Translations under genes and position numbers: made by a program
Origin: Thermoanaerobaculia bacterium
GTDB taxonomy: Bacteria > Acidobacteriota > Thermoanaerobaculia > UBA5066
Length of the DNA stretch: 64,000 nucleotides
Reading direction: 5' to 3'
Assembly (NCBI GenBank): GCA_963719225.1
Contig: CAVRAY010000001.1
Span: 3,328,001-3,392,000, forward strand
The notes under the pieces: generated by a model
What the model was told of the DNA's origin: nothing
The model's input: only the letters and a program-made list of their open reading frames with translations
Database searches by the model: none
In this document: piece by piece, positions 18,613 through 34,515 of the stretch
Layout: every line of letters begins with the position of its first letter
How positions within the stretch are numbered: position 1 is the stretch's first letter

Positions 18613-18704
18613 GGTCGTCCCCACGTCCCTTGATACGGAAACGCGCCCCGGGAGTTCCCGGAGCCAGCGGTAGCCGCCGGTACAATCGGTCACTTCAGTA
18701 CCTT

Positions 18705-21700
18705 ATGAGAGTCTGGCGCCACGTTGCCCTCCTCGGCCTGTGCCTCCTGCCCTATGGGGGCTCGGCGGCCGGTGCCGCGCCGAGCGACGAGCCGCCGGAG
18801 GCCAACGCGCCCCCGACCGTGTTGACAGCGACTGCGTCGGTCGATCGCGAGCTGTCCGCCGGAGCCCACCACTATCAGATTCGTCTCGCCGCGGGGCAGT
18901 TCGCACGCGTCGTCGTCGCTCAGCGCGGTGTCGACGTCGGCTTGAGACTGCTCGACCCGCAGGGGAGCGCGATCGCCGAAGTCGATGACCAGTCCCTGGG
19001 AATCGACGGAGAGGAGATCCTCACCGTCATCGCGAACCGCTCGGGGGAGCACACGCTCGAGGTCCGCGCGAATCGACCCGGGCTCCTCGGTCGCTACGGA
19101 CTGAAGGTCGTCGAGATCCGCGATTCTCATCCGACCGACTGCGCCCGTATCGAGGCTGAGCGACTCCTCCTGGAGGGAAGCCGCCTGTGCGACAAGGGGG
19201 TCGCGCCGTCGGCTCGGCAGGCCGCCGAGACGTACGTCAGGGCGGCAGGCTTGTGGCGTCGGCTCGACGACGCCCGAGGGGAGATGCGAGCGATTTCGGG
19301 GCTTGGCCAGTCGTATGTCCTCCTGGGAAACGCGCCGGCCGCTCTCGGCGCCTTTAACGAGGCGCTCGCGTCCGCCCGGGAAGCGGCCTGCCCGCAGTGC
19401 GAAGCGGAGGTCCTGGCGGGTCTCGGGGTCTGCCACGATCAGCTCGGCCGCAAGAGAGCCGCGATCGAGTTCTACGAGGAATCCCTGCCGCTCTGGCGCG
19501 CGTCGGGCATCCGCAGCGGCCAGGCGACCTTGCTTCATGACCTGTCGCTGGTCCACGACAACCTCGGCGAGAAGCGCATCGCGCTCTCGGGATATCGCGA
19601 GGCCCTTTCACTCTGTCGTGCCGCAAAGGACCGCACCGGAGAGGCGATGGTGCTCACCGCCCTGGGCAAGGTCGCCGACGACCTCGGCGACTATCAAAGG
19701 GCCCTCGACAGCTACGAAGACGCTCTGAAGCTCGCCACGGAGCTCGGGAACGTTCGCGGTCAAGCCGTGATCCTGACAAATATCGCCATCGTGTACAGCC
19801 GTCTCGGGGCCCCGGAGAAGGCGCTCCGGTTCTGTGAGCAGGCGCTTCCACTTCGACAGAGGGTCGGAGATCCCCGTGGCGTGGCCGCGACGCTGACCGC
19901 CATGGGCAAGGCTCACTTCGAGCTTCACCAGACACAGGACGCGATCGATCTCTACGAGCGCGCGCTCGCGCTCAGTCGTGGCGCGTCGGACCTCCGCGGC
20001 GAGGCGGTTGCCCTGTCGCGACTGGCCTCTGCCTACGAGGCCACGGACCGGCTCGATGAAGCGCTTCGCACCCATGGACGTGCCGCGGAGCTGAGGAAAA
20101 AGACGGAGGACACGCTTCTGGAGAGCGGATCGCTCGTTCGCCTTGGCGACGTGGAGATGCGGCTGGGTGACCTCGACGCGGCGCGAGAGCATCTCGCGCG
20201 GTCCCTGGAGCTCGCCCGCGGCAACGGCGATCGCGCCCAGCAGACGGACACCCTCACGTCTCTGGGAGATCTGGCGCGCAGGCGCGGGGACTTCGAGTCC
20301 GCACGATCGACCCTCGAGCAGGCGATCTCGTTGAGCGACGAGACGCGGACCAGGGTCACGAGCCCCGAGCTGCGCGCTTCCTATTCCGCCAGAGAACGAC
20401 GAGCGCACGAGCTGCTCGTCGACACGCTGATGACGCTCCACGCGCGAAATCCCTCGGGGAGCTTCGACAGGCTGGCCTTCGACGTCGTGGAGCATGGTCG
20501 AGCCCGTTCGCTGCTCGAGATCCTTTCCGCCTCGGACGCCCAAGCGCCCGCGCACGTGGACGAGCCCCTCTTCGAGCGGCGGCGCTCGCTGCGGGAGCTC
20601 CTGGCGGCGAAGCTCGACCGGCGAATCCGCATGGCGTCGTCCCGAGCCTCCCAGGGAGACCTCGCGGACGCGACGTCCGAGGTCGAACGCCTGGAAACCG
20701 AGCTCGATCGCGTCGATGCCCACATCCGTGCGAGCGACCCTGCGTACGCGTCGCTCGTCGGCGGAAAATCTCCCGGCCTCCCGGAGCTCCAGCAGGAGCT
20801 CCTCGACGACGACACGCTGCTCCTCGAGTATTCGCTCGGCAGCGAGCGCGGATTCGTTTGGGCAATGACGAAATCGTCGGTGTCGGTTCGGGAGATCCCG
20901 TCCCGCCAGCGCATCGAGGAAGCCGCGCGCGACGCTTACAAACGCCTCGCGTCGCACACGCGGGCCGACGAGGCCCTGAAACGGCTCGCCGATCTCGTTC
21001 TGCGTCCGGTCGGGATCGAGGTCTGGAAGAAGAGGATCGTCATCGTGGCGGACGGCGCTCTCCAGTACGTGCCCTTTGCCGCCCTGCCCGACCCCTCTTC
21101 CGGCAGGTCGCTGATCGTGAATCACGAAGAGGTGAGCCTGCCGTCCGCATCGGTGCTGTCGGTCCTGCGGAAGGAGGGAGCGTCGCGGCGGTCGCCCTCG
21201 GCGACCCTGGCGGTCTTCGCCGATCCCGTCTTCAGCGTCGACGACGCGCGCGTGGCAGTAGCGCAGGTCGCGAGCAGAGGCTTCTCGGCGACCTTCCCGG
21301 AGCCCTCCGCGGCGGCGGTCAGCTCTTCGAGCGAAGGCGAAGCGCGTCTCCCGCGCCTGCCGTTCACGCGTCGCGAGGCGGAAAGGATCCTCGCTCTGGT
21401 TCCGCCGAGTCAGAGGAAGCAGGCGCTCGACTTCGACGCCTCCCGCGCGGCGGCCATGGCGGCGGATGTTGGCGAGTACCGGTTCGTGCACTTCGCCACG
21501 CATGGCTTCCTCGACGATCGCAGCCCCCAGCTGTCGGGGCTCGTCCTGTCGCTCGTCGACCGCAACGGGATCGCGCAGCCCGGATTGCTCGCGGCCTCGG
21601 ACATCTTCGCCCTGAGGCTGTCCGCCGATCTCGTCGTCCTCTCCGGCTGCCAGACCGCGCTCGGAAAGGACGTGCGCGGGGAAGGGCTCGTCGGCCTCAC

Positions 21701-21929
21701 ACGCGCGTTCATGTACGCCGGAGCTCCGCGCGTCGTCTCGAGTCTCTGGAAGGTCGACGACGTGGCGACGGCTGAGCTCATGGGCCGCTTCTATTCGGCG
21801 ATGCTGGGCCCGAAGAAGCTGCGCCCCGCCGCGGCGCTGCGCGCGGCCCAGAACGCGTTGCGGAGCGAGCCGCGCTGGCGCTCCCCGTACTATTGGGCCG
21901 GCTTCGTCCTGCAAGGAGAATGGAACTGA
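18705..21929 (+). CDS. exported TPR-repeat CHAT (caspase/HetF-like) protease
   Basis: Signal peptide, PPC-like N-domain, many TPRs, C-terminal CHAT with VHFATHG (His) and VVLSGCQTA (Cys), SLWKVDD, PYYWAGF. Confidence 0.92.
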   Translation: MRVWRHVALLGLCLLPYGGSAAGAAPSDEPPEANAPPTVLTATASVDRELSAGAHHYQIRLAAGQFARVVVAQRGVDVGLRLLDPQGSAIAEVDDQSLGIDGEEILTVIANRSGEHTLEVRANRPGLLGRYGLKVVEIRDSHPTDCARIEAERLLLEGSRLCDKGVAPSARQAAETYVRAAGLWRRLDDARGEMRAISGLGQSYVLLGNAPAALGAFNEALASAREAACPQCEAEVLAGLGVCHDQLGRKRAAIEFYEESLPLWRASGIRSGQATLLHDLSLVHDNLGEKRIALSGYREALSLCRAAKDRTGEAMVLTALGKVADDLGDYQRALDSYEDALKLATELGNVRGQAVILTNIAIVYSRLGAPEKALRFCEQALPLRQRVGDPRGVAATLTAMGKAHFELHQTQDAIDLYERALALSRGASDLRGEAVALSRLASAYEATDRLDEALRTHGRAAELRKKTEDTLLESGSLVRLGDVEMRLGDLDAAREHLARSLELARGNGDRAQQTDTLTSLGDLARRRGDFESARSTLEQAISLSDETRTRVTSPELRASYSARERRAHELLVDTLMTLHARNPSGSFDRLAFDVVEHGRARSLLEILSASDAQAPAHVDEPLFERRRSLRELLAAKLDRRIRMASSRASQGDLADATSEVERLETELDRVDAHIRASDPAYASLVGGKSPGLPELQQELLDDDTLLLEYSLGSERGFVWAMTKSSVSVREIPSRQRIEEAARDAYKRLASHTRADEALKRLADLVLRPVGIEVWKKRIVIVADGALQYVPFAALPDPSSGRSLIVNHEEVSLPSASVLSVLRKEGASRRSPSATLAVFADPVFSVDDARVAVAQVASRGFSATFPEPSAAAVSSSSEGEARLPRLPFTRREAERILALVPPSQRKQALDFDASRAAAMAADVGEYRFVHFATHGFLDDRSPQLSGLVLSLVDRNGIAQPGLLAASDIFALRLSADLVVLSGCQTALGKDVRGEGLVGLTRAFMYAGAPRVVSSLWKVDDVATAELMGRFYSAMLGPKKLRPAAALRAAQNALRSEPRWRSPYYWAGFVLQGEWN

Positions 21930-21942
21930 GCCGGCTCTCTCC

Positions 21943-22554
21943 GTGCTGAACCGCGACGCGTTCGAGCGGCTCCTCCGCGCGCTGGGCGACGACCCGGAGC
22001 GAGCGGGCGAGGCGTACGAGCGGCTCCGCGAGAAGCTGATCAAGTTCTTCGAGTGGCGCGGCTCGGATCGTCCGGATACGTTGGCCGACCTGACGTTCGA
22101 CCGCGTCGGCCGCAAGCTCGAAGAGGGGGAGACGATAAAGTCGGCCGATCCCGCGGCGTACGTGTATGCCGTAGCCCGCAACATCCTGAAGGAGAGCTGG
22201 GTCGACGAGCGGCGGCAGCGGGACGCGGAGAGAGGAGCTCGGGACGACGGGGACGAGCCGGAGCGCATCACCCGGGAGAGCCGGCACCGCTGTCTCGATC
22301 GGTGTCTCGAATCGATGGCGGCGGAGAGCCGGCGACTGCTCCTGCGCTACTACGCCACCCCCGGATCTGCGCGGATCCCGGCCCGCAAGGCGTTGGCGCA
22401 GGAGCTCGGGGTCCCGCTGAACGCCCTCCGCATCCGCACGCACCGTCTGCGAGCCGACCTGGAACGCTGCATCGAGGATTGCCTCCGGCAAGCGGACCGC
22501 GAAATGGATCGCCCCAGGACTCACTTGGATAGGGGAAGAAGGGAGAGCCGGTGA
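21943..22554 (+). CDS. ECF-type RNA polymerase sigma factor
   Basis: Region 2-like YERLREKLIKFF..DLTFDRV..YVYAVARN; region 4 HTH LAQELGVPLNALRIRTHRLR; 203 aa. Confidence 0.8.
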   Translation: MLNRDAFERLLRALGDDPERAGEAYERLREKLIKFFEWRGSDRPDTLADLTFDRVGRKLEEGETIKSADPAAYVYAVARNILKESWVDERRQRDAERGARDDGDEPERITRESRHRCLDRCLESMAAESRRLLLRYYATPGSARIPARKALAQELGVPLNALRIRTHRLRADLERCIEDCLRQADREMDRPRTHLDRGRRESR

Positions 22555-23402
22555 GCGACGTCCAGGACGCTCTGCTCGTCCGATATCTGCTCGGCGATGC
22601 GACGGAAGAGGAGAAAAGTCGTCTCGAAGAACGATTCTTCGCGGACGACGACGTGTTCTCCCGCCTCCTCGAGAGCGAGACCGACCTCGTGGACGGTTAT
22701 GTGGCGAACACGCTGCCGGCACGGGACCGCGCGCTGTTCGAGGCACGGGCAGCGGCCTCACCGGCCCTCGCCGAGCGCGTCGAGATCGCCCGCGCCCTGT
22801 CGAGGGTGGCCGGTCCGGTCACCGTGCCGGCGCGTCCCCCCGCCAGCCCCTGGGTGCCGCTCCTCCTCGCGGCTTCGGTTGTGCTGGCCGCGGCGCTCGG
22901 TCTGACGTTGCGCGAGACAACCCGACTCCGCGGTTCCATGCGAGCCCTGGAGTCGAGCCGCGAAGAGCTCGTCGCCCGGCTCACGGCAGCCCAGCAGACG
23001 TCGATGGAGCGGCAGGGAAAGATCGACGAGCTGTCCCTGGATCTCGCCTCGCGTGGCACGGCGACGGGCACCCCGTCGATCCTCGCGTTCACATTGAGCG
23101 GCGGGCTGACGCGCGGCCAGGGGCGAGGCAACGTGCTCCGGATCCCGGCGGACGCGACGCTCGTCGCGCTCGAGCTGCCGCTCACAATGGCTCCTAAGGT
23201 GCCACTGCTGGTTCGGGTCGAGACGGTCGAAGGCAAAGCGGTTGCGAGCCTCGACGGCGTGACGATTGCCCCCGGCGACGCCTCGCTTCGGGTGACACTG
23301 CCCGCAAGCGTGCTGCCTCCGGGCGATTACGTCGTGAGCGCATCTTCGACGGGCGCGCGCCCGGCGGTGATCACCGAGATGACATTCCGGGTCGCGCGCT
23401 AG
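22551..23402 (+). CDS. putative transmembrane anti-sigma factor
   Basis: GTGA overlap with the sigma gene; N-terminal LVRYLLGD...E...LE helical domain, one TM, coiled coil, beta-rich C-domain. Confidence 0.65.
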   Translation: MSDVQDALLVRYLLGDATEEEKSRLEERFFADDDVFSRLLESETDLVDGYVANTLPARDRALFEARAAASPALAERVEIARALSRVAGPVTVPARPPASPWVPLLLAASVVLAAALGLTLRETTRLRGSMRALESSREELVARLTAAQQTSMERQGKIDELSLDLASRGTATGTPSILAFTLSGGLTRGQGRGNVLRIPADATLVALELPLTMAPKVPLLVRVETVEGKAVASLDGVTIAPGDASLRVTLPASVLPPGDYVVSASSTGARPAVITEMTFRVAR

Positions 23403-23477
23403 GCGTCGAAACGTTTTCCGGGTTTCCTCCACTAGACGTCAGAACGACGGTCTTCCGACTCTGACAGGGAGGGAACC

Positions 23478-26400
23478 ATGGGACGTCGATCCGGAGCGAT
23501 TTCTGCCATGGCGGTTCTGTCTCTCGTGCTCACGAGATCGGCTCTCCTGGCACAGAGGGGCCCCGACAACGATCCGGACGGGCTGCAGGGATACGTCGAC
23601 AACGTGTTTCACCACTCGTCCGTAGACTCGGTCAACCTCTACAACGGCCAGCTCAGCGTGCCGATCGCCATCGGCCCGTCCTACCCGATCGGTCCCGCGC
23701 TGAAGCTTCAGCTCGTGATGACCTACGGCTCCCGAATCTGGGAGTATGGCCATCCCTCCGGCAGTCCGATCGTCACGCCTAAGCCGATTGCCGGTGATCC
23801 TGCGCTCGGCATTGGCTGGACCTTCACTTTCGGAGCGATCAAGGTCTGCAAGATCCTTCCACCCGGAACAGGCCGCATGTGCTACGTCGGACCGGACGGG
23901 AGCCAGCACATCTTCGACATGCCCGATCCGGCGCGCGGGGCGGGCTATTTCAAAACGAGCGACGCAAGCCAACTCTCGCTTAGGAACGTCGCCACCGATC
24001 CAAGCGGCGAAGGACCGTTCGACATGTGGGACGGCGACGGCAACCACCACGTGTTCGGCTGGCACGTAGCCAATTTCGACGACCCGCAGTCGGACTTCCA
24101 CCACGACTTCGGCCGGGGGCGGGACGGCTGGTACCTGACCTCTTTGTCGGATCCTTTCGGCAACGCCTACTCCGTATCCTACAAATCGGGAACCGGTCCG
24201 TGCTGGAGCTACGCGACGCCGTGCACGTATCAGACAATGTCGTGTCCGGCCACCGCGGCGAACCTTTGGATACCACAGACGGTCACCCTTCCGACGCCGG
24301 GTCCGAACAACGTCATCACGATCGGGACGGACGCCAGCCAGATGGTCAGCAGCGTCACGCTGCCGGTCTCGGGCGGCACCACAACGACGTGGATATTCAG
24401 TTATCAATCCGACACGTACAACGAGACGTGCGGGGGAGGCCAGATCAATCTGCGAGAACTCCAGTCGATCCAGCTTCCGGGCGCTGTGGGCTCTTATCAG
24501 TTTGCGTACAAGAACGATGCTAACTGCGTCACCGGCCTGCTCTCGCACCTCCAGATCCCGACCGGTGCGACCAGCGACTACCTGTACGGGTTGTACTCCT
24601 TCTATCACGGCCGACTCGCCGCGCTAAGCCAGACCTGCGCTCCGATCGGTCCTGACCCCACAGCTGAGGTCGAAGTCTCCGCTGCGAGCCAATGCATCGC
24701 GGCTCAGCGTGCGCCGAACTCACGAACGGCGCTCTCCTCCGGAACATGCACGGACCAGCCCAACTACCTCGACCAACAGCTCGGCATCGTTCAGCGTACG
24801 GAGACGACCTCCGGCGTCACCGCAGTCACCGACTACGTCCAGCTCTCCTTCCCGTTCGGAGAGCAGGGAGCCGCGCCCAAGGCGAACTGCGATGCGCTCG
24901 GCCGCTGCGGACCCCAGACGTTGACAGTCGTCGTCGCGCCCGCGGATGTCGACGGACGCCGCCGTGCCAAGGGAACCCTCTTCTGGGCCGCCCCCAAGAA
25001 CCCGAATCAGACCCAAGTCTATGCCGGCGAGCGCACCGGCGCCGACATCGAGACTCGCGACTACGAAGACGATCCGACGCGGTCGATCAACGTGAGCATG
25101 CCCGTGTGCGGTGGAGCGCAGGTCAATTCATTCTGCGCCGACGGCGCGATACGCGTGACGCAGCGTTCGTACGAGTACGACGTCCCGACCAGCGAGATCG
25201 GCAACCGCCGGATGCTCTCGGAAATCGCGTATCACCAGCCCGCGGCCGCCAACGGAACGTGCACGAGCTGCAAGAACCACTCGACGGCGTTCTCGAATAC
25301 CAACGGCAAGACGTGGGAAGGGAACGGCCGGCACTACAACGTCGAGACGCACGGCGGAAACCTCGGGAATGACGCGAGGACGGTCACGACGAACTGGACG
25401 CCGCAGCTCACCTCGAGATGGTTGCCCAATCTCTACGACACGAAGATAGAGAGCGACCCGACGCTGTCGGTCAACCACTATTTCGAGTTCAACTCCTCGA
25501 ATGGGTTCCTCAACTGCACGTTCCTCCACGATCCCGGGCCGGGACGCGTCTTCTTCAAGCGCCGTTTCCCGGCCGCGGATGGCACTGTCGCGCAGGACTT
25601 CAGCGCGACCTCGACCGGCTTCCCGAGCCCGCCGTACATCGGCCAGTGCATCGCTACGTACCCCAGCCCTCCCGTTCCCAGCGGGCCTGCCATCGGGACG
25701 AACAGCGACGCGTTCGGCAAGGTCTACACCTATCAAAACGGACTTCTGACGTCAGCGCGCTGGATCAACGGCAACGCCGCGGCTTCGTGGTACGCGAAAC
25801 GCTTAACGCGAGACCCCTCCACCGGCTGGATCACGACCTCGTACGATTCGGCGGGACTCGCGACCGGCCTCGGCTACGACGTCGTCGGTCGCGTCACAAG
25901 CGTGGCCCCTCCCGGGGAAGCCGCGACCGCGGTCTCGTATCCCGCGACGACGCGAACGATCGCGACGCGCAATGGCGGGTCGGGACTTTCGACGTACCAG
26001 GAATACGTATACGACGGGCTGGGCCGTCTGGCGCGGGAGATTCAGCTCCGGCCCGCATCCACGTATGCGGTCCGCGTGCACGGCTTCGACGGCGCAGGAC
26101 ACCGGGTGTACGACTCCGAGTGGGGCACCTGCGGCAGCCCCACCGGCGACTGTCTGACGACCTCACCTTCGGGCTCTCACCGTTCGAACCTCGATCCCTT
26201 CGCACGCGACCAGAGTTTCAGCACCGCGGACGGCGCGATCACGACGACCTCGTATGCCGACACGTACTCGCTCTACTCCGACACGAAGAAGAGCGTCACG
26301 AGCCCCTGTGTCAACGGGACGTGGAGGGCCGGAGCCTGTTCCGGCGGGACGCCTTCGACGAGCACGTACTTCTCGGACGCGTTTGGACGGCTCACGTCGG

Positions 26401-28589
26401 TGACGGAGCCGAGCGGAGACGTCACGAGCTACAGCTACGACCTGAACGGAAAGCTGAGATCGGTTGCGCAGGGAGTGCAGACGCGCAGCTTCACCTACGA
26501 CCCCGCGGGGTTCCTCCGATCGCAGTCGACTCCTGAGGAAGGACTCGTGACGTACGTCGCGATAGGCGCTCTCGCTAATGTCCGACAGGAGACCCACGCC
26601 GGCGGGGTGACGCTGACCCGCACGTACGACTTCGCCGGCCGGCTCACCTCGACGGCGAGCAACGAAGGGGGCAGCCGCACCTACCTCGCCAACACGTACG
26701 ATGAGGCCGCCGGCTCGTCTGCCGGAAAGCTCACGAGCCGAATCGCCTCCAACTACGCCGTCGTCCCGACGTCCACAGTCCGGGACGTCTTCGCCTACTC
26801 GGGCGTGGGGGGTCGCCTCTCTTCCCGTCAGTCCAACGTGAGCGGGGCGCTCAGCCTCTCGGAGACGCAGAGCTGGTCCTACAACGCGCTCGGCCTCGTC
26901 GCGCATCACTCTCATCCGCGGTCCGCGACGGACGCACCGTTGCGCGTCTCCACGGACTACGACGCCGGCCTTCCCGTGGCGCTGTACATGAATGGGCTTG
27001 GGGTGCTCTCCGGCGTCGCGTACACGGCTTGGGGAGGGGTACGCTCATACACCACGGGCCTCGGCGTCGGGCACGACGTGACGACGACGGTGACGCCCGA
27101 TCCGACGCTCCTCGCTCGGCCGGTGCAGATTTTCTCGAGGGAACAGGCCTCGGGCGCCACGTTGTTCGACACGGCGTCTTACCTCTACGACGGAATCGGG
27201 AACGTGAAGAGCATCGGCCCCGATGTCTTCGGCTACGACGCGCGATCGCGGCTCGTGTCCGCGTCCCTGCAGATCGGTTCCGGGTCGTCGAGTCAGACCT
27301 ATGCCTACGACCGTTACGGCAACATGACGTCCAGGAGCATCGGCGGGAGCCCGATCAACTTCCCGGTCGATCCGTACACGAACCATCTCATGGGCGCGGT
27401 CTACGACGCCCGCGGCAGCGTCGGCCAAAACGGCGGCGAGACGTTCGTCTACGACGGCCTCGAACGAATGATGCAGGCGACGACGACGAACACGTGGAAG
27501 TACCTCTACGACGGCGCCAACGAGCGGATCGCGAAGGTGCCGCCGACCGGAGCTCCCGGGTACCAGTTCCGCGACGAGGCGAACCGCGTCGCGACCGAGA
27601 TGTCGGGCTCGATACCCTCACGGGACAACGCTTTCCTCGGGCGCCTCCTCGTCGCGTCGTATTCGAATTGCGCTGTTGGTGGGAATTGCAGCTACGGCGG
27701 ATCCGCGAAGGGCCCTTGGCAGTTCTTCGCATCCGACCACCTCGGAACGCCGAGACTCATCACGGGAACATCGGGCGAACAGCTGGACCTGAGAAAGTAC
27801 TGGCCGTATGGCGACGAGGCTGTCGGGGCCACCGACGACCCGCAACGCCTGCGGCTCGCCGGGATGGAACGTGACGCCGAAGGAAGCCGCTACTACGACC
27901 ACGCGCGGAGCCACGACTTCGGGCTTGCGAGGTTCCTCAGCCCCGACCTGCTTGGCGGAAAGTCCGCCGTGCCGGGAACCTGGAATCGCTACGTCTACGC
28001 GAGCAATAACCCGATAAATCGTTTCGATGGCAACGGTCTGGCCGACGATCCGACCAACCCATCGGGTCCGAGGCCTAGCACGTTCTCGGATAAGGCATGG
28101 AAAACGTTTTCGAGTGCCGTCTTCATCGGAATCAAACTGGGCGTCAGGCTAGGCGTTGCCGCCGCCGAGTTCAGCGCCAACTTCGCTGGCGAGAGTGGAA
28201 AGATCGAACTGAAGACCGGCAGCGATGCCATAAAGGTCAAGGGCTCCGTCGAAGTCTCGCCTCCAACTGGAAAAACGGGCGGCGCGATCAGCTATGAGTT
28301 TGTCAATGGGATGTTCGTCGACTCTAACGGTAACGTTGGTGCTAAGAAATCGGTCGAGATTATTCCCGCGGGCAGCTCCCTGAGAGTAACCGGTAGCGCG
28401 CAGGCCAGCGTCAATGTGCCTGCGTCCGTTGAGGCCGGAGGTGACGTCATCGACGCCGCCACATCTGCCGCCGCGCATGGCCCCGTCGGCGACATGAGAG
28501 ACAAGCTGAACAATATCGACGGTGCGATCGAGAACAACTGCACTCACCTCTCCGGAAACAACCGGTGTTCGGACCCGGCTCCTAAGTGA
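23478..28589 (+). CDS. secreted RHS/YD-repeat protein with RHS-associated core
   Basis: Signal peptide, DSVNLYNGQL, YD repeats (YDVVGRVT, YDGLGRL, YDFAGRLT), core DHLGTPR, RFLSPD, WNRYVYASNNP; variable C-terminus. Confidence 0.92.
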   Translation: MGRRSGAISAMAVLSLVLTRSALLAQRGPDNDPDGLQGYVDNVFHHSSVDSVNLYNGQLSVPIAIGPSYPIGPALKLQLVMTYGSRIWEYGHPSGSPIVTPKPIAGDPALGIGWTFTFGAIKVCKILPPGTGRMCYVGPDGSQHIFDMPDPARGAGYFKTSDASQLSLRNVATDPSGEGPFDMWDGDGNHHVFGWHVANFDDPQSDFHHDFGRGRDGWYLTSLSDPFGNAYSVSYKSGTGPCWSYATPCTYQTMSCPATAANLWIPQTVTLPTPGPNNVITIGTDASQMVSSVTLPVSGGTTTTWIFSYQSDTYNETCGGGQINLRELQSIQLPGAVGSYQFAYKNDANCVTGLLSHLQIPTGATSDYLYGLYSFYHGRLAALSQTCAPIGPDPTAEVEVSAASQCIAAQRAPNSRTALSSGTCTDQPNYLDQQLGIVQRTETTSGVTAVTDYVQLSFPFGEQGAAPKANCDALGRCGPQTLTVVVAPADVDGRRRAKGTLFWAAPKNPNQTQVYAGERTGADIETRDYEDDPTRSINVSMPVCGGAQVNSFCADGAIRVTQRSYEYDVPTSEIGNRRMLSEIAYHQPAAANGTCTSCKNHSTAFSNTNGKTWEGNGRHYNVETHGGNLGNDARTVTTNWTPQLTSRWLPNLYDTKIESDPTLSVNHYFEFNSSNGFLNCTFLHDPGPGRVFFKRRFPAADGTVAQDFSATSTGFPSPPYIGQCIATYPSPPVPSGPAIGTNSDAFGKVYTYQNGLLTSARWINGNAAASWYAKRLTRDPSTGWITTSYDSAGLATGLGYDVVGRVTSVAPPGEAATAVSYPATTRTIATRNGGSGLSTYQEYVYDGLGRLAREIQLRPASTYAVRVHGFDGAGHRVYDSEWGTCGSPTGDCLTTSPSGSHRSNLDPFARDQSFSTADGAITTTSYADTYSLYSDTKKSVTSPCVNGTWRAGACSGGTPSTSTYFSDAFGRLTSVTEPSGDVTSYSYDLNGKLRSVAQGVQTRSFTYDPAGFLRSQSTPEEGLVTYVAIGALANVRQETHAGGVTLTRTYDFAGRLTSTASNEGGSRTYLANTYDEAAGSSAGKLTSRIASNYAVVPTSTVRDVFAYSGVGGRLSSRQSNVSGALSLSETQSWSYNALGLVAHHSHPRSATDAPLRVSTDYDAGLPVALYMNGLGVLSGVAYTAWGGVRSYTTGLGVGHDVTTTVTPDPTLLARPVQIFSREQASGATLFDTASYLYDGIGNVKSIGPDVFGYDARSRLVSASLQIGSGSSSQTYAYDRYGNMTSRSIGGSPINFPVDPYTNHLMGAVYDARGSVGQNGGETFVYDGLERMMQATTTNTWKYLYDGANERIAKVPPTGAPGYQFRDEANRVATEMSGSIPSRDNAFLGRLLVASYSNCAVGGNCSYGGSAKGPWQFFASDHLGTPRLITGTSGEQLDLRKYWPYGDEAVGATDDPQRLRLAGMERDAEGSRYYDHARSHDFGLARFLSPDLLGGKSAVPGTWNRYVYASNNPINRFDGNGLADDPTNPSGPRPSTFSDKAWKTFSSAVFIGIKLGVRLGVAAAEFSANFAGESGKIELKTGSDAIKVKGSVEVSPPTGKTGGAISYEFVNGMFVDSNGNVGAKKSVEIIPAGSSLRVTGSAQASVNVPASVEAGGDVIDAATSAAAHGPVGDMRDKLNNIDGAIENNCTHLSGNNRCSDPAPK

Positions 28590-28597
28590 GGTGGAAC

Positions 28598-31411
28598 ATG
28601 AAAACGCTCTCGCTCCTCGTTCTCCTCCTCGTCGCCGATGCCTCGAGACTGCTCGCGCAGTCGAGCGACCTGTCCATCTCGGCCGGCTCGTCCCCGAACC
28701 CCGTCGCCCTCGGATCGAATCTGACCTACACCATCTCCATCGGTGTTCCTGCCGGAGGCGCAACCGGTCTCACCGTTACGAACGTCCTCCCACCCGGCGT
28801 CACCTACGTCTCCGGCATCCCGAACTGCACGAACAACCAAGGGACGGTCGTGTGTCTTCTCGGGGCGGTCGGCGCCGGCACGGCGACGGCAACGATCGTC
28901 GTCACGCCGACGACCGCCGGGACGATCAAGAACGTCGTCGGCGTGATCGGGAACGAGTACGACCCGAACATGGCCAACAACCATGCAGTGGTCACCACAG
29001 TCGTAGGCCAGCCCGTGCTGCGAGTCATGACGGAGATTACGGAGCTTTGTGTCGCGGCGACAATCCCGTATGTGCCTCAACGCTACCTTTTCGTCGCGGC
29101 GGGCGGGACGCCCCCCTACACGTGGTCGATGTCGGGCCTGCCGACGTGGATGACGTTCGACCCCCTGAAGCGCCAACTCGACATCGGTGCACCACCACTT
29201 GACGTGCCTGCGACGGTTACGTTCACCGCGACGGTCAGCGATGCGGCCGGGAGGAGCACGTCTTTCACGTATAACAACGTGCCGGTCATCTCCAACGGGG
29301 CGAGCTGCGGCCCGATCTTCAAGACGACCGCTGGAGACATCCATTCTTGCCCCGGCGACACGCCGCACCCCTGTTTCAACGCTCAGCGGTTCGACGGTGG
29401 CACCGTGACGAAGAAGTGGCAACAGCTCGGGACGAAGCCGAACGGTGACTGGGGCTGGAACGACGTCCCCGGCGAGACGGCCATGTGTCTGGCCCAGCCC
29501 GCTCCGGGCGGCGGCACGTATCGAATGAACGCGAAGGATCCCTTGACGGCGCGAGAGTCCAACAGCAGCCCCGTCACGATCAGCTTTGGCGATCCGATCC
29601 AGGTCCTGCGCATCTCGGGGGCCGCCAGCGCGTGTCAGGGGAAGAACATCAACCTCAATCAGTACATCGACGCGATCGGAGCGGATCTCAGCATCGCCTT
29701 CGAGGAGAAGCAGGCGGACGGGAGCTGGCTCGGGATCAACCCGACCGTCACGCTCACGAAACCGTCGACCTATCGCGCGCGCCTGACGAGCCCGTGCGTC
29801 GCGCCGGTCGTGAGCGGCACGATGTTCTTCAATGTCCAGCCGCAGCCCACGCTCACGCAGGTTCCGGCGGACAGGACCTTCTGCGCCGGCCAGCCCGTGA
29901 CGCTCACGGCGACGGGGAACGTCTCGGGCGTCTTCACGTGGTACCGCTACGACGCGGGGACCTGGACGAGCATCTTGACCACCTATCCGAACAACACCAC
30001 GACCTCGTCGATAACCCTGACGCCGACGGCCGCGACCACCTACAAGGTCTCGTTCGGGACGTTCACCTGTGGCAGCTTCGACTCGGCGCCGTTCACCCTG
30101 ACGCCAGTCGCACTGCCCGCCATTTCGAGCACCAAGGCCACCCCCGCCGTGACGTGCGCCGGATACCCATCCGATCTCTCGGCCTCGGCCGTGAACGCGA
30201 CGAGCGTGAAGTGGCAGTCGTGGAACGGCACGGCGTACGTCGACATTCCGGGGGCGACCGCCTACACGTATCGCACGCCGATCCTGACGTCGAGCGCCAC
30301 GTACCGGTTCGTGGCGAGCAACTCGTGCGCGACGGTGACGTCGAACGTGTCGGTTAACGTCAATCCGGTGCCTCCGGCCTCCATCACCGGCACGGCCTGC
30401 TCCGTCGCGTCCGGCCAATCATCCAAGCTCACGGCCGTTACCGACATGTCTTATTCGCCGCGCTTCCTGTGGTCGCCGGGCGGGCAGACCACGCAGCAGA
30501 TCACCGTCAGCCCGGCGACGACCACGACCTACACCTGCACGGTTACGATCCCGACGACCGGTTGCTGGAAGGTCGCGAGCTATACAGTCGCGGTCGGCAC
30601 CCAGATCACGACGCCCGTCCTCACCGCGAATCCCGCTAGCGTGTCGGTCTGCGGAGGAGCTCCCGGGACGACGTTGTCCGTCGGGGCGAGCGGGACCCTC
30701 CTGACGTATCAATGGCAGAAGCAAAATCCCGATTCGAGCTGGTCGAACGTCGCGGGGGCGACGGCCGCGAGCTACACGGCGCCAGCCGCCAACGCGGCGT
30801 ATCGCGCCGTCGTCGCGAACAGCTGCGGATCGGTCACGAGCGCGGCGGCGACGGTCACCGTCAGCAGCTCGCAATCCGCCGCGATCGTGACGCCACCCGC
30901 GACCCAGAACTATTGCACGAGCGGAAGTGCCACGCTCTCCGTGGGCGCGACCGGCACGAACCTCACGTACCAATGGCAGTGGCTCAACCAATATTCACAA
31001 TGGGTCACGGGCTACCCGTATCCGTCGATCTCCGCCCCGTCGATCTCCGTCGCTCCGACCGTCCCGACCCAGTTCCGCGTCGTCGTGTCCAACGCGTGCA
31101 ACTCCGTCACGAGCAGCCCGTTCTGGGTCAGCCCCTCGCCCCCCGTGACGATCACCGGGCAACCGACCGGCGGGACGTACTGCGCGAACTACATTTACGC
31201 GAGGCTGACGGTCTACGACACCGGAGCTCCGGACATCACGTATCAATGGCAGGTCGCGACCGACGGCGTCACGTTTACGAACATCGCGAACGCCCGGTCC
31301 AATCAGTACACCGCCCTTACCGGCGGCTACTACCGGTGCGTGTTGACCAGCGCGTGCGGCGCGCTCGTAACGAACGTGGCCGTCGTGGGATATGTGAACT
31401 GCGGGTATTGA
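28598..31411 (+). CDS. secreted DUF11/Ig-like repeat protein
   Basis: Signal peptide, DUF11-like SDLSIS...PNPV..G..LTYTI..DPN.ANN, GGTPPYTWS, repeated TYQWQ...YR.VV.N.CG.VTS Ig modules. Confidence 0.85.
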   Translation: MKTLSLLVLLLVADASRLLAQSSDLSISAGSSPNPVALGSNLTYTISIGVPAGGATGLTVTNVLPPGVTYVSGIPNCTNNQGTVVCLLGAVGAGTATATIVVTPTTAGTIKNVVGVIGNEYDPNMANNHAVVTTVVGQPVLRVMTEITELCVAATIPYVPQRYLFVAAGGTPPYTWSMSGLPTWMTFDPLKRQLDIGAPPLDVPATVTFTATVSDAAGRSTSFTYNNVPVISNGASCGPIFKTTAGDIHSCPGDTPHPCFNAQRFDGGTVTKKWQQLGTKPNGDWGWNDVPGETAMCLAQPAPGGGTYRMNAKDPLTARESNSSPVTISFGDPIQVLRISGAASACQGKNINLNQYIDAIGADLSIAFEEKQADGSWLGINPTVTLTKPSTYRARLTSPCVAPVVSGTMFFNVQPQPTLTQVPADRTFCAGQPVTLTATGNVSGVFTWYRYDAGTWTSILTTYPNNTTTSSITLTPTAATTYKVSFGTFTCGSFDSAPFTLTPVALPAISSTKATPAVTCAGYPSDLSASAVNATSVKWQSWNGTAYVDIPGATAYTYRTPILTSSATYRFVASNSCATVTSNVSVNVNPVPPASITGTACSVASGQSSKLTAVTDMSYSPRFLWSPGGQTTQQITVSPATTTTYTCTVTIPTTGCWKVASYTVAVGTQITTPVLTANPASVSVCGGAPGTTLSVGASGTLLTYQWQKQNPDSSWSNVAGATAASYTAPAANAAYRAVVANSCGSVTSAAATVTVSSSQSAAIVTPPATQNYCTSGSATLSVGATGTNLTYQWQWLNQYSQWVTGYPYPSISAPSISVAPTVPTQFRVVVSNACNSVTSSPFWVSPSPPVTITGQPTGGTYCANYIYARLTVYDTGAPDITYQWQVATDGVTFTNIANARSNQYTALTGGYYRCVLTSACGALVTNVAVVGYVNCGY

Positions 31412-31418
31412 CTGGGCT

Positions 31419-31453
31419 GAAAGGGCGCCCGCCTCATGTCGGGCGCCCCTTTC
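31419..31453 (+). terminator. rho-independent terminator-like hairpin
   Basis: GAAAGGGCGCCC-10 nt-GGGCGCCCCTTTC right after the Ig gene stop. Confidence 0.6.
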
Positions 31454-31547
31454 GTTCGTCCCCATGATCCGCCGTCATGTGAAGCCGGTACTCCGTCCCC
31501 CGATCACGCCGAATCCCGGTGCTAGCATCGTTTCCCTCGGAGGACGC

Positions 31548-33146
31548 ATGACTCCATCCCGCCGTGAGTTCTTGAAGGGCTGCGCTTCGGGCGCGGCCGC
31601 CTGGGCGGCGATCGAGCTCGTCCCCGGCGAATTCCTGATCTCCCGGTCGGAGGCGGCGATGCTGCCTCCCGAGAAGCTGAAGGAGCTCGCCGCTTTCGCC
31701 CTCGAGCGGGCGAAGAAGGAAGGGGCGACGTACGCGGACGTGAGGATCAACCGCTACCGGAGCCAGGTCGTGACGCTGCGCTCCCAGACCGACCTCGCGA
31801 CCGGGAAGCTCAACCACGTCCCGGCCGTCTCGGACTCGGAGACCTTCGGCTTCGGGATCCGCGTCCTCTCGGCCGGCGCCTGGGGCTTTTCGGCCTCTCA
31901 CCTCGTCACGAAGGACGAGATCGCGCGCGCGGCGAAGGAGGCCGTCGGGATCGCGAAGGCAAACGCGCCACTCCTTCAGGAGCCCGTGCGCCTCGCGCCG
32001 GTTCCGGCCTACACGGACTCGTACGCGACGCCGCTCGCTCAGGACCCGTTCTCGGTCCCGATCGCCGAGAAGCTCGATCTCCTGCGCCGCGCGAGCGAGG
32101 AGGCGAAGAAGGTGCCCGGCGTCTTTTCCACGAACGGCTTCGTCGCGCAGCGCGTCGAGTACCGGTTCTTCGCCTCGACCGAGGGGAGCGTTATCACGCA
32201 GACGGTCTTCCAGATCTCCCCCGAGTTCTCCGCGACCGCCGTGGAGCGCGGGCGCAAGACGAAGACGCGCACGTACCGCCCGAACGCGTCGACGGCCGGT
32301 TACGAGGTCGTCACGCGCGCGGACCTCGCCGGAAACGCGCGGCGCGTGGGCGAGGAGGTCGTCAACCACCTCAAGGCGCCGTCCGTGGCGCCGGGAAAGA
32401 AAGACCTCGTCCTCCTCCCCACGCATCTCGCCCTCACGATCCACGAGTCGATCGGGCATTCGACCGAGCTCGACCGCGCGCTCGGCTTCGAGGCGAATTA
32501 CGCGGGCACGTCGTTCCTCACGACGGACAAGCTCGGGACGTTCCGCGTCGGCGCGGACCTCGTGAATTTCAACGGCGACCGGATCCGCAAGGAGAGCCTG
32601 TCGACGTGCGGCTAGGACGACGACGGCGTCAAGACGCGCCAGTTCCCGATCATCAGGAACGGGATCTTCGTCGGCTACCAGACGATCCGCGACCAGGCCC
32701 ACCTGATCGGACAGAAGGAATCCATGGGCTGCTGCTACGCGGACTCCTACGCCTCGGTCCCATTCCAGCGCATGCCGAACGTCTGGCTCGAGCACGGCAA
32801 GGACGGCGCGACACTCCAGGACCTCGTCTCGGGCGTCGACGACGGCGTCCTGATCGACGGCCGCGGGTCATACTCCATCGACCACCAGCGCTACAACTTC
32901 CAGTTCGGCGGCGACGCGTTCTGGGAGATCAAGGGCGGGAAGGTCGGCGCGATGATCGCGGACGTCGCCTACCAGAGCCGGACGCCGGACTTCTGGCAGG
33001 CGTGCGACCGCATCGCGGGCGAGGCCGCGTGGGAGAACGTCGGACTGAACGCGGACGGCAAGGGCGAGCCAGGCCAGATCAACGCGATGAGCCACGGCTG
33101 CTCTCCGTCGCGGTTCCGGCAGATCAACGTCCTGAGGACGGAGTAG
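31548..33146 (+). pseudogene. tldD: TldD family metalloprotease with Tat signal, interrupted by in-frame TAG at 32613-32615
   Basis: SRREFLK Tat motif, HESIGH metal site; frame continues TCG*DDDGVK..QRMPNV..GSYSIDHQRYNFQFGG..SHGC to TAG 33146. Confidence 0.8.
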
Positions 33147-33150
33147 CGCG

Positions 33151-34515
33151 ATGAGCTGGACGAAACAGGACGCGAAGACGCTCGCCGACCGGATCCTCTC
33201 CTCCTCGAAGGCGAAAGAGTGCGAGGTCGCCCTCGCCGAGACGTCGCTCGTGCACACGCGGTTCGCCGCGAACGAGATCACGACCTCGGGCGCGGCGCGC
33301 GACCTTTCGGTCTCGATCACGAGCCGAGGCGGGGGAAAAAGCGGGAGCGTCCGCGTCAACGACCTCGATCCGGAGGCGCTCCGCAAGGCCGTGGCGCTGA
33401 GCGAGGAGCTCATGCGCGCCGCGACACCGGACCCGGAGTCCGTCGACGGCCTCGGGCCGCAGACGTACCCGGAGATCCGCTCGTTCCACGAGGACACGGC
33501 GCGCGCGGGCGCGGCCGAACACCGCCCCGGTATCAAGGCCGCTCTGGACGAAGCGCGCGCGCGAAAGCTGACCGCTTCGGGTTTCTCGGAGACGATCGTC
33601 ACGACCTCCGCGATCGCGAACAGGAAAGGCAACTTCGGATTCCACGTGGGGAGCACGGCGACGTATTCGACGACGATGCGCACGGCGGACGGCACGGGCT
33701 CCGGGTGGGCCGGATTCGACTCTCCCCGATTCGGGGACGTCAAAGCCGCCGATCTCGCGGCGCGCGCGGCGAAAAAGGCGCAGGCCAGCGCTTCGCCTAA
33801 GGAGCTGCCGCCCGGTGCGTACACGGTCATCCTCGAGCCGCGCGCCGTCGCGGACCTCCTCGGCAGCCTGTTCTTCTCGTTCTCCCGCCGGCTCGTCGAC
33901 GAGGGGCGGAGCTTCCTGTCCAAGCCGGGCGGTGGGAACCGGATCGGCGAGCGGGTCTTCGCGCCGAGCGTCACGCTGCGGTCGGACCCCTTCGACCCGA
34001 GGCTCGCGGGACGCCCGTGGATCGCGGGGAGCGGCGGCGGATTCCTCGGTTTCGGCGGCTTCGGGGGCGGCGGGACCGCGGGACTTCCGGCGAGGAAGAC
34101 GACGTGGGTCGAGAAGGGCGTCGTCAGGAACGTTCCCGTCGACCGTTACTGGGCCGCGAAGCAGAAGCTCGAGGCGCTTCCCAACTCGGGCAGTACGGTC
34201 CTGGAGGGCGGGTCGGGGTCCCTCGAAGGGCTCATCGCCGGAACGGAGCGCGGCCTTCTCGTGACGCACTTCTTCTACATCCGCTCCGTGAACCCGCAGA
34301 ACGTCCAGCTCACGGGTCTCACGCGCGACGGCCTGTGGCTCGTCGAGAAGGGCAAGGTCGTCGCTCCGGTCCGGAACTTCCGGTTCAACGACAGCCCCGT
34401 GAACGTCCTGAAGAACGTCGAGGCGATGAGCGCGTCCGTGCCGGTCGGAAGCATGATCGCGCCCGCGATCCGCGCCCGCGACTTCAAGTTCACGTCCAAG
34501 AGCGACGCGGTCTAG
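33151..34515 (+). CDS. TldD/PmbA family protein (PmbA/TldE-like partner)
   Basis: TRFAANEIT, LPPGAYTVILEP.AV, TGLTRDG, NFRFNDSP; no HExxxH; 4 bp downstream of tldD. Confidence 0.88.
   Translation: MSWTKQDAKTLADRILSSSKAKECEVALAETSLVHTRFAANEITTSGAARDLSVSITSRGGGKSGSVRVNDLDPEALRKAVALSEELMRAATPDPESVDGLGPQTYPEIRSFHEDTARAGAAEHRPGIKAALDEARARKLTASGFSETIVTTSAIANRKGNFGFHVGSTATYSTTMRTADGTGSGWAGFDSPRFGDVKAADLAARAAKKAQASASPKELPPGAYTVILEPRAVADLLGSLFFSFSRRLVDEGRSFLSKPGGGNRIGERVFAPSVTLRSDPFDPRLAGRPWIAGSGGGFLGFGGFGGGGTAGLPARKTTWVEKGVVRNVPVDRYWAAKQKLEALPNSGSTVLEGGSGSLEGLIAGTERGLLVTHFFYIRSVNPQNVQLTGLTRDGLWLVEKGKVVAPVRNFRFNDSPVNVLKNVEAMSASVPVGSMIAPAIRARDFKFTSKSDAV

Follow-up and report, generated by a model that had tools for sequence, protein, structure and literature searches.

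In Myxococcus xanthus, the DdvA/DdvS system, as described in PMC11506125 and PMC6061681, combines a sigma factor of the extracytoplasmic function (ECF) type, a single-pass anti-sigma factor and a periplasmic tetratricopeptide repeat (TPR)-CHAT region with a His/Cys dyad; a first (site-1) cut by CHAT followed by RseP is proposed for it, and its regulon is local with a repeated promoter. These features are shared with a five-gene block of a Thermoanaerobaculia bacterium, found in a stretch of 64,000 nucleotides called here the window, to which all numbering refers (G000 is the source genome, other G labels are compared genomes, and L labels are fetched loci). The block encodes, in this order and all on the plus strand, a CHAT protein, an ECF sigma factor, an anti-sigma-like protein, an RHS protein, and a protein with immunoglobulin (Ig) repeats (Table 1). 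On balance, and with modest confidence, we favor from sequence comparison the reading in which the exported TPR-CHAT protein is a signal-gated site-1 protease of the anti-sigma, which would cut after Arg188 and free the sigma factor for transcription of the RHS and Ig genes.

The window system works like DdvA/DdvS, yet it is not a member, because three defining features fail: the zinc-binding anti-sigma domain (ZASD), the fusion, and the promoter with its regulon. In the published descriptions, DdvA is a TPR-CHAT region fused to an anti-sigma that binds zinc, whereas here the CHAT protein is separate, exported, and has an additional PPC-like domain, and the anti-sigma has no zinc motif and carries an Ig-like outer domain of its own, in which one Arg is invariant. 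The DdvA/DdvS promoter is given as GTAA-n16-CGT, against GAAAY-N16/17-CACT here, and its output as CBASS and CRISPR, against large secreted proteins in the phylum Acidobacteriota. The single-pass anti-sigma beside an ECF sigma recurs here as a predicted topology. PADLOC returns only a generic TPR match for the five block proteins. The CHAT–sigma–anti-sigma idea is a split variant of the published DdvA hypothesis and not wholly new; no description of a split Acidobacteriota module was found in the literature searched, which left subscription papers uncovered and took in the supplement on ECF classification in part.

The first-pass annotation of the window took the type III-E craspase (Csx29/Csx30/CASP-sigma; PMC10028731) as the nearest model; the closest published system is DdvA/DdvS (PMC11506125). 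In craspase, as described, a separate anti-sigma is cleaved within its C-terminal domain by a TPR-CHAT protease, which relieves an ECF sigma, but the system is cytoplasmic, triggered by RNA via Cas7-11 and acts on a soluble substrate, whereas the CHAT protein here has a predicted export signal. No cas gene is among the five block genes, to which the search for them was confined. As an analogy, craspase is more distant than DdvA/DdvS. In HetF/PatU3 of Anabaena (PMC9457339), a bacterial CHAT removes an inhibitor through a cut after a single Arg, as proposed here, but HetF is described as membrane-bound with periplasmic TPRs, its substrate is not an anti-sigma, and it governs division and differentiation. 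The DegS-RseA-RseP cascade (as given in PMC10028731 and PMC11506125) shares the proposed two-step logic and the topology of the anti-sigma; its site-1 enzyme DegS is a serine protease, whereas here it would be a dedicated, co-encoded cysteine protease of clan CD.

A conserved CHAT–sigma–anti-sigma trio

Conservation was followed at the best 80 of 188 sigma relatives from a scan of species genomes, with record titles mostly from Acidobacteriota. CHAT directly adjoins the sigma gene at 74 of these loci (64 upstream, eight downstream, two convergent) and is not near it at the other six. The anti-sigma gene follows the sigma gene at 75/80, and the five misses end within 660 base pairs (bp) of a contig end. 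The check for a conserved order that the first-pass annotation proposed turns out in its favor, with the full trio adjacent at 70 loci, in three gene arrangements; CHAT–sigma–anti-sigma is a conserved Acidobacteriota module. Neither the window nor any of the 70 complete loci has CHAT and anti-sigma joined in one gene, and no fused form occurs among 7,999 longer candidates scored, which is weak evidence. The ECF54 group (PMC7826278 supplement) likewise has an ECF sigma near a TPR-CHAT protein, but it is described there without a putative anti-sigma, linked to subtilases and confined to Actinobacteria, in contrast to the anti-sigma-bearing, mostly acidobacterial loci here.

The sigma factor falls below every NCBIfam cut-off (TIGR02937, 25 bits vs. 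42.9 needed). Its model has a mean predicted local distance difference test (pLDDT) score of 92, and in fold searches residues 12–98 match RpoE (Z 8.6, root mean square deviation [rmsd] 2.8, 81 aligned) and residues 98–183 the sigma4 domain of SigL (Z 8.4, rmsd 2.6, 79 aligned); sigma factors, complexes of sigma with RNA polymerase and one other DNA-binding domain fill the top 28 rows. With the sigma2 and sigma4 folds only in its model and about 200 amino acids (aa), the protein is predicted to be an ECF sigma of a divergent group. The pair of CxxxC motifs lies on the first and last sigma4 helices, and both motifs are present in 105/117 family members. A zinc site or disulfides are possible, and this sigma group may carry a second, cysteine-based check on sigma4.

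In one clade (L023, L024, L029, L034, L036, L039, L048, L059–L061), a conserved open reading frame (ORF) of ∼95 aa follows the anti-sigma gene, and a second promoter copy then stands before a small Pro/Arg-rich protein.

The CHAT protein

The CHAT domain (PF12770) covers residues 756–1072 with E 2e-68 and 231 bits, against a curated cut-off of 24. As the first-pass annotation had noted, the dyad is intact: HFATHG and LSGCQT are present, and H933 and C982 are invariant in 59/59 homologues. The protein is placed in PF12770 by the score and the His/Cys dyad, and proteolysis itself is a prediction. TPRs are present, together with a weak PPC-like match at residues 55–122; of the TPR-sensed signal in the same annotation, the repeats stand, and the sensor could equally be the N-terminal PPC-like domain. 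The signal peptide reported for the window protein is marginal (hydropathy 1.98), but the family upholds it: by a hydropathy rule, and not a trained predictor, a hydrophobic segment follows the start codon in 63/65 CHAT proteins with intact starts, vs. 8/390 control windows.

The TPRs of homologues commonly carry an asparagine ladder; the window copy departs from it at 7/8 positions (residues 278–439), a hint that the ligand has changed. Contig C2 has another, more distantly related TPR-CHAT gene (L002:9969–13733), whose product ends in a transmembrane (TM)-like segment and which lies beside an ECF sigma and an anti-sigma-like ORF. In other genomes of the genus (L123–L127), the same exported PPC-TPR-CHAT protein is accompanied by an ECF sigma of another kind (as checked in L124) and by an anti-sigma that has a zinc motif yet keeps the Arg-loop domain; in L123, two CHAT genes occur in tandem.

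The anti-sigma outer domain and Arg188

The model of the anti-sigma has a helical N-domain (residues 2–86), a TM helix with a coiled stalk (103–167), and an Ig-like β-sandwich (177–282). The single TM segment already seen in the first-pass annotation is found in this model and in 68/74 homologues. The motif HxxxCxxC occurs in 0/74, and matches to zf-HC2, all sub-threshold, in 44/70. The outer domain has no Pfam model and a weak CopC-like profile match (E 0.002); the label Ig-like comes from this match and from the strands of the model.

In the alignment of 70 anti-sigmas (the 74 without one second copy and without three sequences whose C-termini are aberrant), Arg188 is the sole invariant column, at a mean column identity of 28%. 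It lies within residues 186–190, which fall between strands one and two of the outer domain and are the model's only segment with pLDDT below 50. The positions beside it vary; the next residue is Gly in 46/66, the others listed being Ser, Asp, Asn, Gln, or Ala. HetF is described as cutting PatU3 strictly after Arg117, with changes of the neighbors tolerated and a small next residue preferred (PMC9457339), and separase also cuts after Arg (PMC10317155). Arg188 is the candidate cut site, and CHAT would likely cut after it.

The outer-domain family comprises 10,913 representatives (clusters at 50% identity, E up to 0.001); the best 150 all carry the Arg, a partly circular count. In an even sample of the phylum, the domain occurs in 25/151 genomes, and among 53 matches outside G000 the loop residue, read by eye, is Arg in 51 and Lys in two. 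CHAT lies within 2.5 kb at 39/53 of these loci, which take in zinc-motif anti-sigmas as well as sigma factors of other types. For the loci without a nearby CHAT, four genomes checked directly encode CHATs elsewhere, and another four have CHAT at another fetched locus. A paralogous sigma/anti-sigma pair present across the genus has an Arg near the position of Arg188 in 8/26 and a shorter loop; no CHAT lies within 10 kb of it in G000 (elsewhere the statement covers 1.5-kb flanks only). The pair (L001:10019–11409, at G000:C1 ∼1,580,000, and L088–L112) stands beside arginine-biosynthesis genes and has the same outer fold, mostly without the Arg.

An invariant residue in a flexible loop suits a grip as much as a cut site. 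The TPR-CHAT protein could be a cap, or pseudo-substrate binder, that shields the anti-sigma via the Arg loop. Once the signal had lifted it, the initial cut would fall to a general protease of the periplasm. The precedent is DdvA, whose TPR-CHAT region is described as a demonstrated steric shield of its own TM helix against RseP, its proteolysis being only proposed (PMC11506125). The separase aspartate that contacts the P1 Arg is also not kept. A pure cap would have no need of the dyad, which is invariant in the CHAT homologues, and HetF is a bacterial CHAT with Arg-directed cutting (PMC9457339); we regard the cap as unlikely. A separase-type S1 aspartate was considered as backing for Arg specificity and rejected, the position not being conserved. 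Searches of PDB sequences retrieved only separase (E 0.5) and neither DdvA nor Csx29.

The promoter motif and the predicted circuit

The motif GAAAY-N16/17-CACT comes from motif discovery upstream of anti-sigma genes, with the scoring matrix trained without the window. Sites above 12 bits precede 58/74 anti-sigma genes (training set included), vs. 0.67 expected from shuffles; they also lie within 260 bp after 22/73 anti-sigma genes and before 5/65 CHAT genes, with fewer than one in shuffles for either. In the 4.75-Mb genome, the site 44 bp before the RHS start ranks second, and the site before the anti-sigma gene seventh. Four null genomes hold no site above 20 bits and one to seven above 17 bits, so the site before the anti-sigma gene rests on its conserved position. 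The top-ranked site precedes a 658-aa exported β-propeller protein elsewhere in the genome. Of 29 RHS homologues from other genomes, one has an upstream site above 12 bits. ORFs after motif sites look exported in 22/57, vs. 41/328 at random positions and 83/271 long ORFs nearby, and a regulon of mainly secreted proteins is weakly supported.

Because of where the motif sites fall, the predicted circuit has CHAT and sigma under housekeeping-type control and anti-sigma and cargo induced. A TAAAAT/TACAAT-type motif is found upstream of 36/65 CHAT genes; the CHAT gene of the window is outside those called, and a sigma-70 scan found no promoter before it.

This arrangement bears on an alternative in which CHAT is an output, or a parallel effector on other exported proteins (the RHS protein or foreign ones, for example), and the anti-sigma senses a ligand through its CopC-like Ig domain. 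The weak CopC-like match would fit it, as would the six sigma loci and the 13/53 Ig-domain loci with no nearby CHAT. The family promoter is, however, rare upstream of CHAT, and the link between CHAT and the Ig-domain anti-sigma persists through changes of cargo, of gene order, and even of sigma type, which makes such a role distinctly unlikely.

The RHS and Ig genes as cargo

The RHS protein has the architecture of RHS polymorphic toxins, with YD repeats, an RHS core, and a variable C-terminus; homologues at 32% and 46% identity end in different C-termini. Its C-terminal 180 aa match no known family (no Pfam match) and have no likeness to the tip in G051, and the best score of an Atlas look-up, 0.81, is within the chance range. 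No small immunity gene lies directly 3′; the 937-aa Ig protein follows, and likewise in G051. Toxin activity is putative and not established. A link to a type VI secretion system was considered and set aside: the TssB-family matches of the genome lie outside the block, and a signal-like segment opens the RHS protein. The homologue in G027 has a DUF2380 tip. A stand-alone homologue at L122:435–5759 (46% identity) has a nuclease-like DUF2380 tip and no family promoter.

In G051, from another family, the five-gene order is identical, with an RHS protein 32% identical and a DUF11/Ig gene, whereas in G041 a large exported TIG-repeat protein takes the cargo place behind a 20.3-bit site. Downstream genes at other loci, in a hand-picked set, encode β-propeller, FG-GAP, DUF11, HYR, or TonB-receptor proteins. 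The secreted cargo varies from locus to locus, as the first-pass annotation had foreseen, and the RHS and Ig genes are, as far as sequences tell, interchangeable cargo.

The trio could also be a true switch with the RHS and Ig genes as mere passengers of the insertion. The RHS family is present in 72/201 genomes of the class, no module gene lies within 1.5 kb at 29 other RHS loci fetched, and the genes downstream at other module loci are unrelated. Against passengers stand the second-ranked promoter site just before the RHS start, the shared five-gene order in G051 (though its own site before RHS is below 12 bits), and the strong site before a different large exported protein in G041. We consider this reading very improbable.

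An unnamed C-terminal domain of ∼120 aa, a candidate sorting or anchoring domain of exported proteins, has 32 tblastn matches in G000 (for example, L247:1010–1375 on the minus strand, L114:1484–1858, and L114:1960–2316) and also ends two cargo proteins of G051.

Block layout and insertion

The co-orientation, spacing, and closing hairpin given in the first-pass annotation are confirmed by the ORFs and the scan: the intergenic distances in gene order are 13 bp, a GTGA overlap, 75 bp, and 8 bp. An alternative in-frame GTG start at 28586 for the Ig gene would overlap the RHS stop. The scan for terminators gives two hairpin-T sites vs. 8.2 in shuffles, so the hairpin is informative by its position only. 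It had been read as the end of a single unit; the hairpin stands, but with two promoter sites of the ECF type predicted inside it, the block is likely more than one transcription unit.

A DNA search across 28 other genomes of the genus finds the flanks joined, with 5–19 bp between them, in G007, G003, G011, and G025 (left flank to ∼18662, right from ∼31500). Because these four have the flanks joined, the five-gene block is an insertion. In G013, G028, and G019 (aligned), the ATP-binding cassette (ABC) gene is joined to a gene lying further right. The tldD/pmbA pair (window 31548–34515), with a Tat-like leader on TldD, lies apart from the ABC gene in these three. Neither terminal repeats at the block ends nor a mobility gene in the block is seen; transposon- or tRNA-type ends were rejected, as no repeats stand at the block ends (tRNAs were not scanned). 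The GC content at third codon positions is slightly below that of the flanks. The sigma family (E below 1e-30) is present in 5/61 related genomes and 2/29 of the genus.

Table 1. Features of the five-gene block, in window coordinates
Feature	Position	Strand	Basis or remark
Inserted five-gene block, ∼12.8 kb	18663..31505	no strand	Flanked by tldD and a divergent ABC-transporter gene; approximate ends
Weak, inferred −10 hexamer (TACAAT) of housekeeping type upstream of the CHAT gene	18681..18686	+	Seen in sequence
PPC-like + TPR + CHAT cysteine protease, predicted exported, 1074 aa, dyad H933/C982	18705..21929	+	ORF, profile, hydropathy
Divergent ECF sigma factor, 203 aa, CxxxC motifs C117/C121 and C176/C180	21943..22554	+	Profile, model, fold match
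Predicted ECF promoter of the anti-sigma gene, GAAAT-N16-CACT, lying in the sigma gene's 3′ end	22499..22526	+	17.6 bits
Zinc-free membrane anti-sigma-like protein, 283 aa	22551..23402	+	Model, profiles, homologue counts
Predicted ECF promoter of the RHS and Ig genes, GAAAC-N17-CACT	23406..23434	+	22.7 bits
RHS/YD protein, signal-peptide-like start, 1703 aa	23478..28589	+	Profiles
DUF11 + Ig-repeat protein, predicted secreted, 937 aa	28598..31411	+	Profiles
Intrinsic-terminator-like hairpin and T tract, closing the block	31423..31448	+	Terminator scan

Proposed mechanism and significance

The sequences show that the genes are linked, that the dyad and Arg188 are invariant, that a promoter motif is shared, and that the block is inserted; from there the favored site-1 reading would run as follows. 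Expression of CHAT and sigma would start at a housekeeping-type promoter upstream of them. The PPC-like or TPR part would bind a ligand, probably a peptide or protein, that aligns the dyad, and CHAT would then cut the anti-sigma after Arg188 in the loop of the outer domain. With the outer domain lost, and perhaps with trimming of the 60–80-residue stalk, the TM helix would be open to an RseP-type protease. A protease of the M50 family, of which the genome holds members, would complete the release of sigma. The freed sigma would transcribe the local cargo and, as negative feedback, more anti-sigma; it would also act at a distance, on the gene of at least one further exported protein (C1:399528, minus strand). 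The earlier claim that CHAT cuts the anti-sigma and induces the RHS and Ig genes is supported in part, by the family motif directly before RHS and by the candidate Arg188.

Several points weigh against this reading. In DdvA, site-1 cutting or autoproteolysis by CHAT is, according to PMC11506125, proposed and never demonstrated, and its trigger is not known. The specificity of CHAT is not fixed, because Csx29 is described as cutting after Met or Leu (PMC10028731). The profile used in the searches contained the Arg, so the frequency of Arg in new hits is partly circular. The basic loop residue is kept at the 13 loci without a nearby CHAT, and the paralogues that serve as control form a single lineage, in which the loop is shorter. 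The separase aspartate that contacts the P1 Arg appears in a weak alignment (E 0.5) to correspond to Ala1023, placed by an offset of +41 from the catalytic Cys, which we take to be that of separase; the position is Ala, Ser, or Arg in 58/59 homologues. Relative to long ORFs, the enrichment of signal-peptide-like starts after motif sites is slight.

More tentatively, and with less confidence than even chances would warrant, the large, unnamed outer-domain family may serve as a portable substrate tag, an “arginine bait loop,” recognized by dedicated proteases of the separase kind in the periplasm, with swappable PPC/TPR sensors and sigma/anti-sigma heads; caspase-type site-1 proteolysis would then be a major signaling route in Acidobacteriota.

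Whether a periplasmic CHAT acts as a site-1 protease is the question left by the DdvA structure, and here enzyme and substrate are separate proteins. With a candidate P1 residue (Arg188), a catalytic residue (C982), and a target promoter (before the RHS gene) named, the model is testable. If true, it would define a widespread signaling route in a phylum that is abundant yet barely studied, along with a modular switch gated by a protease.

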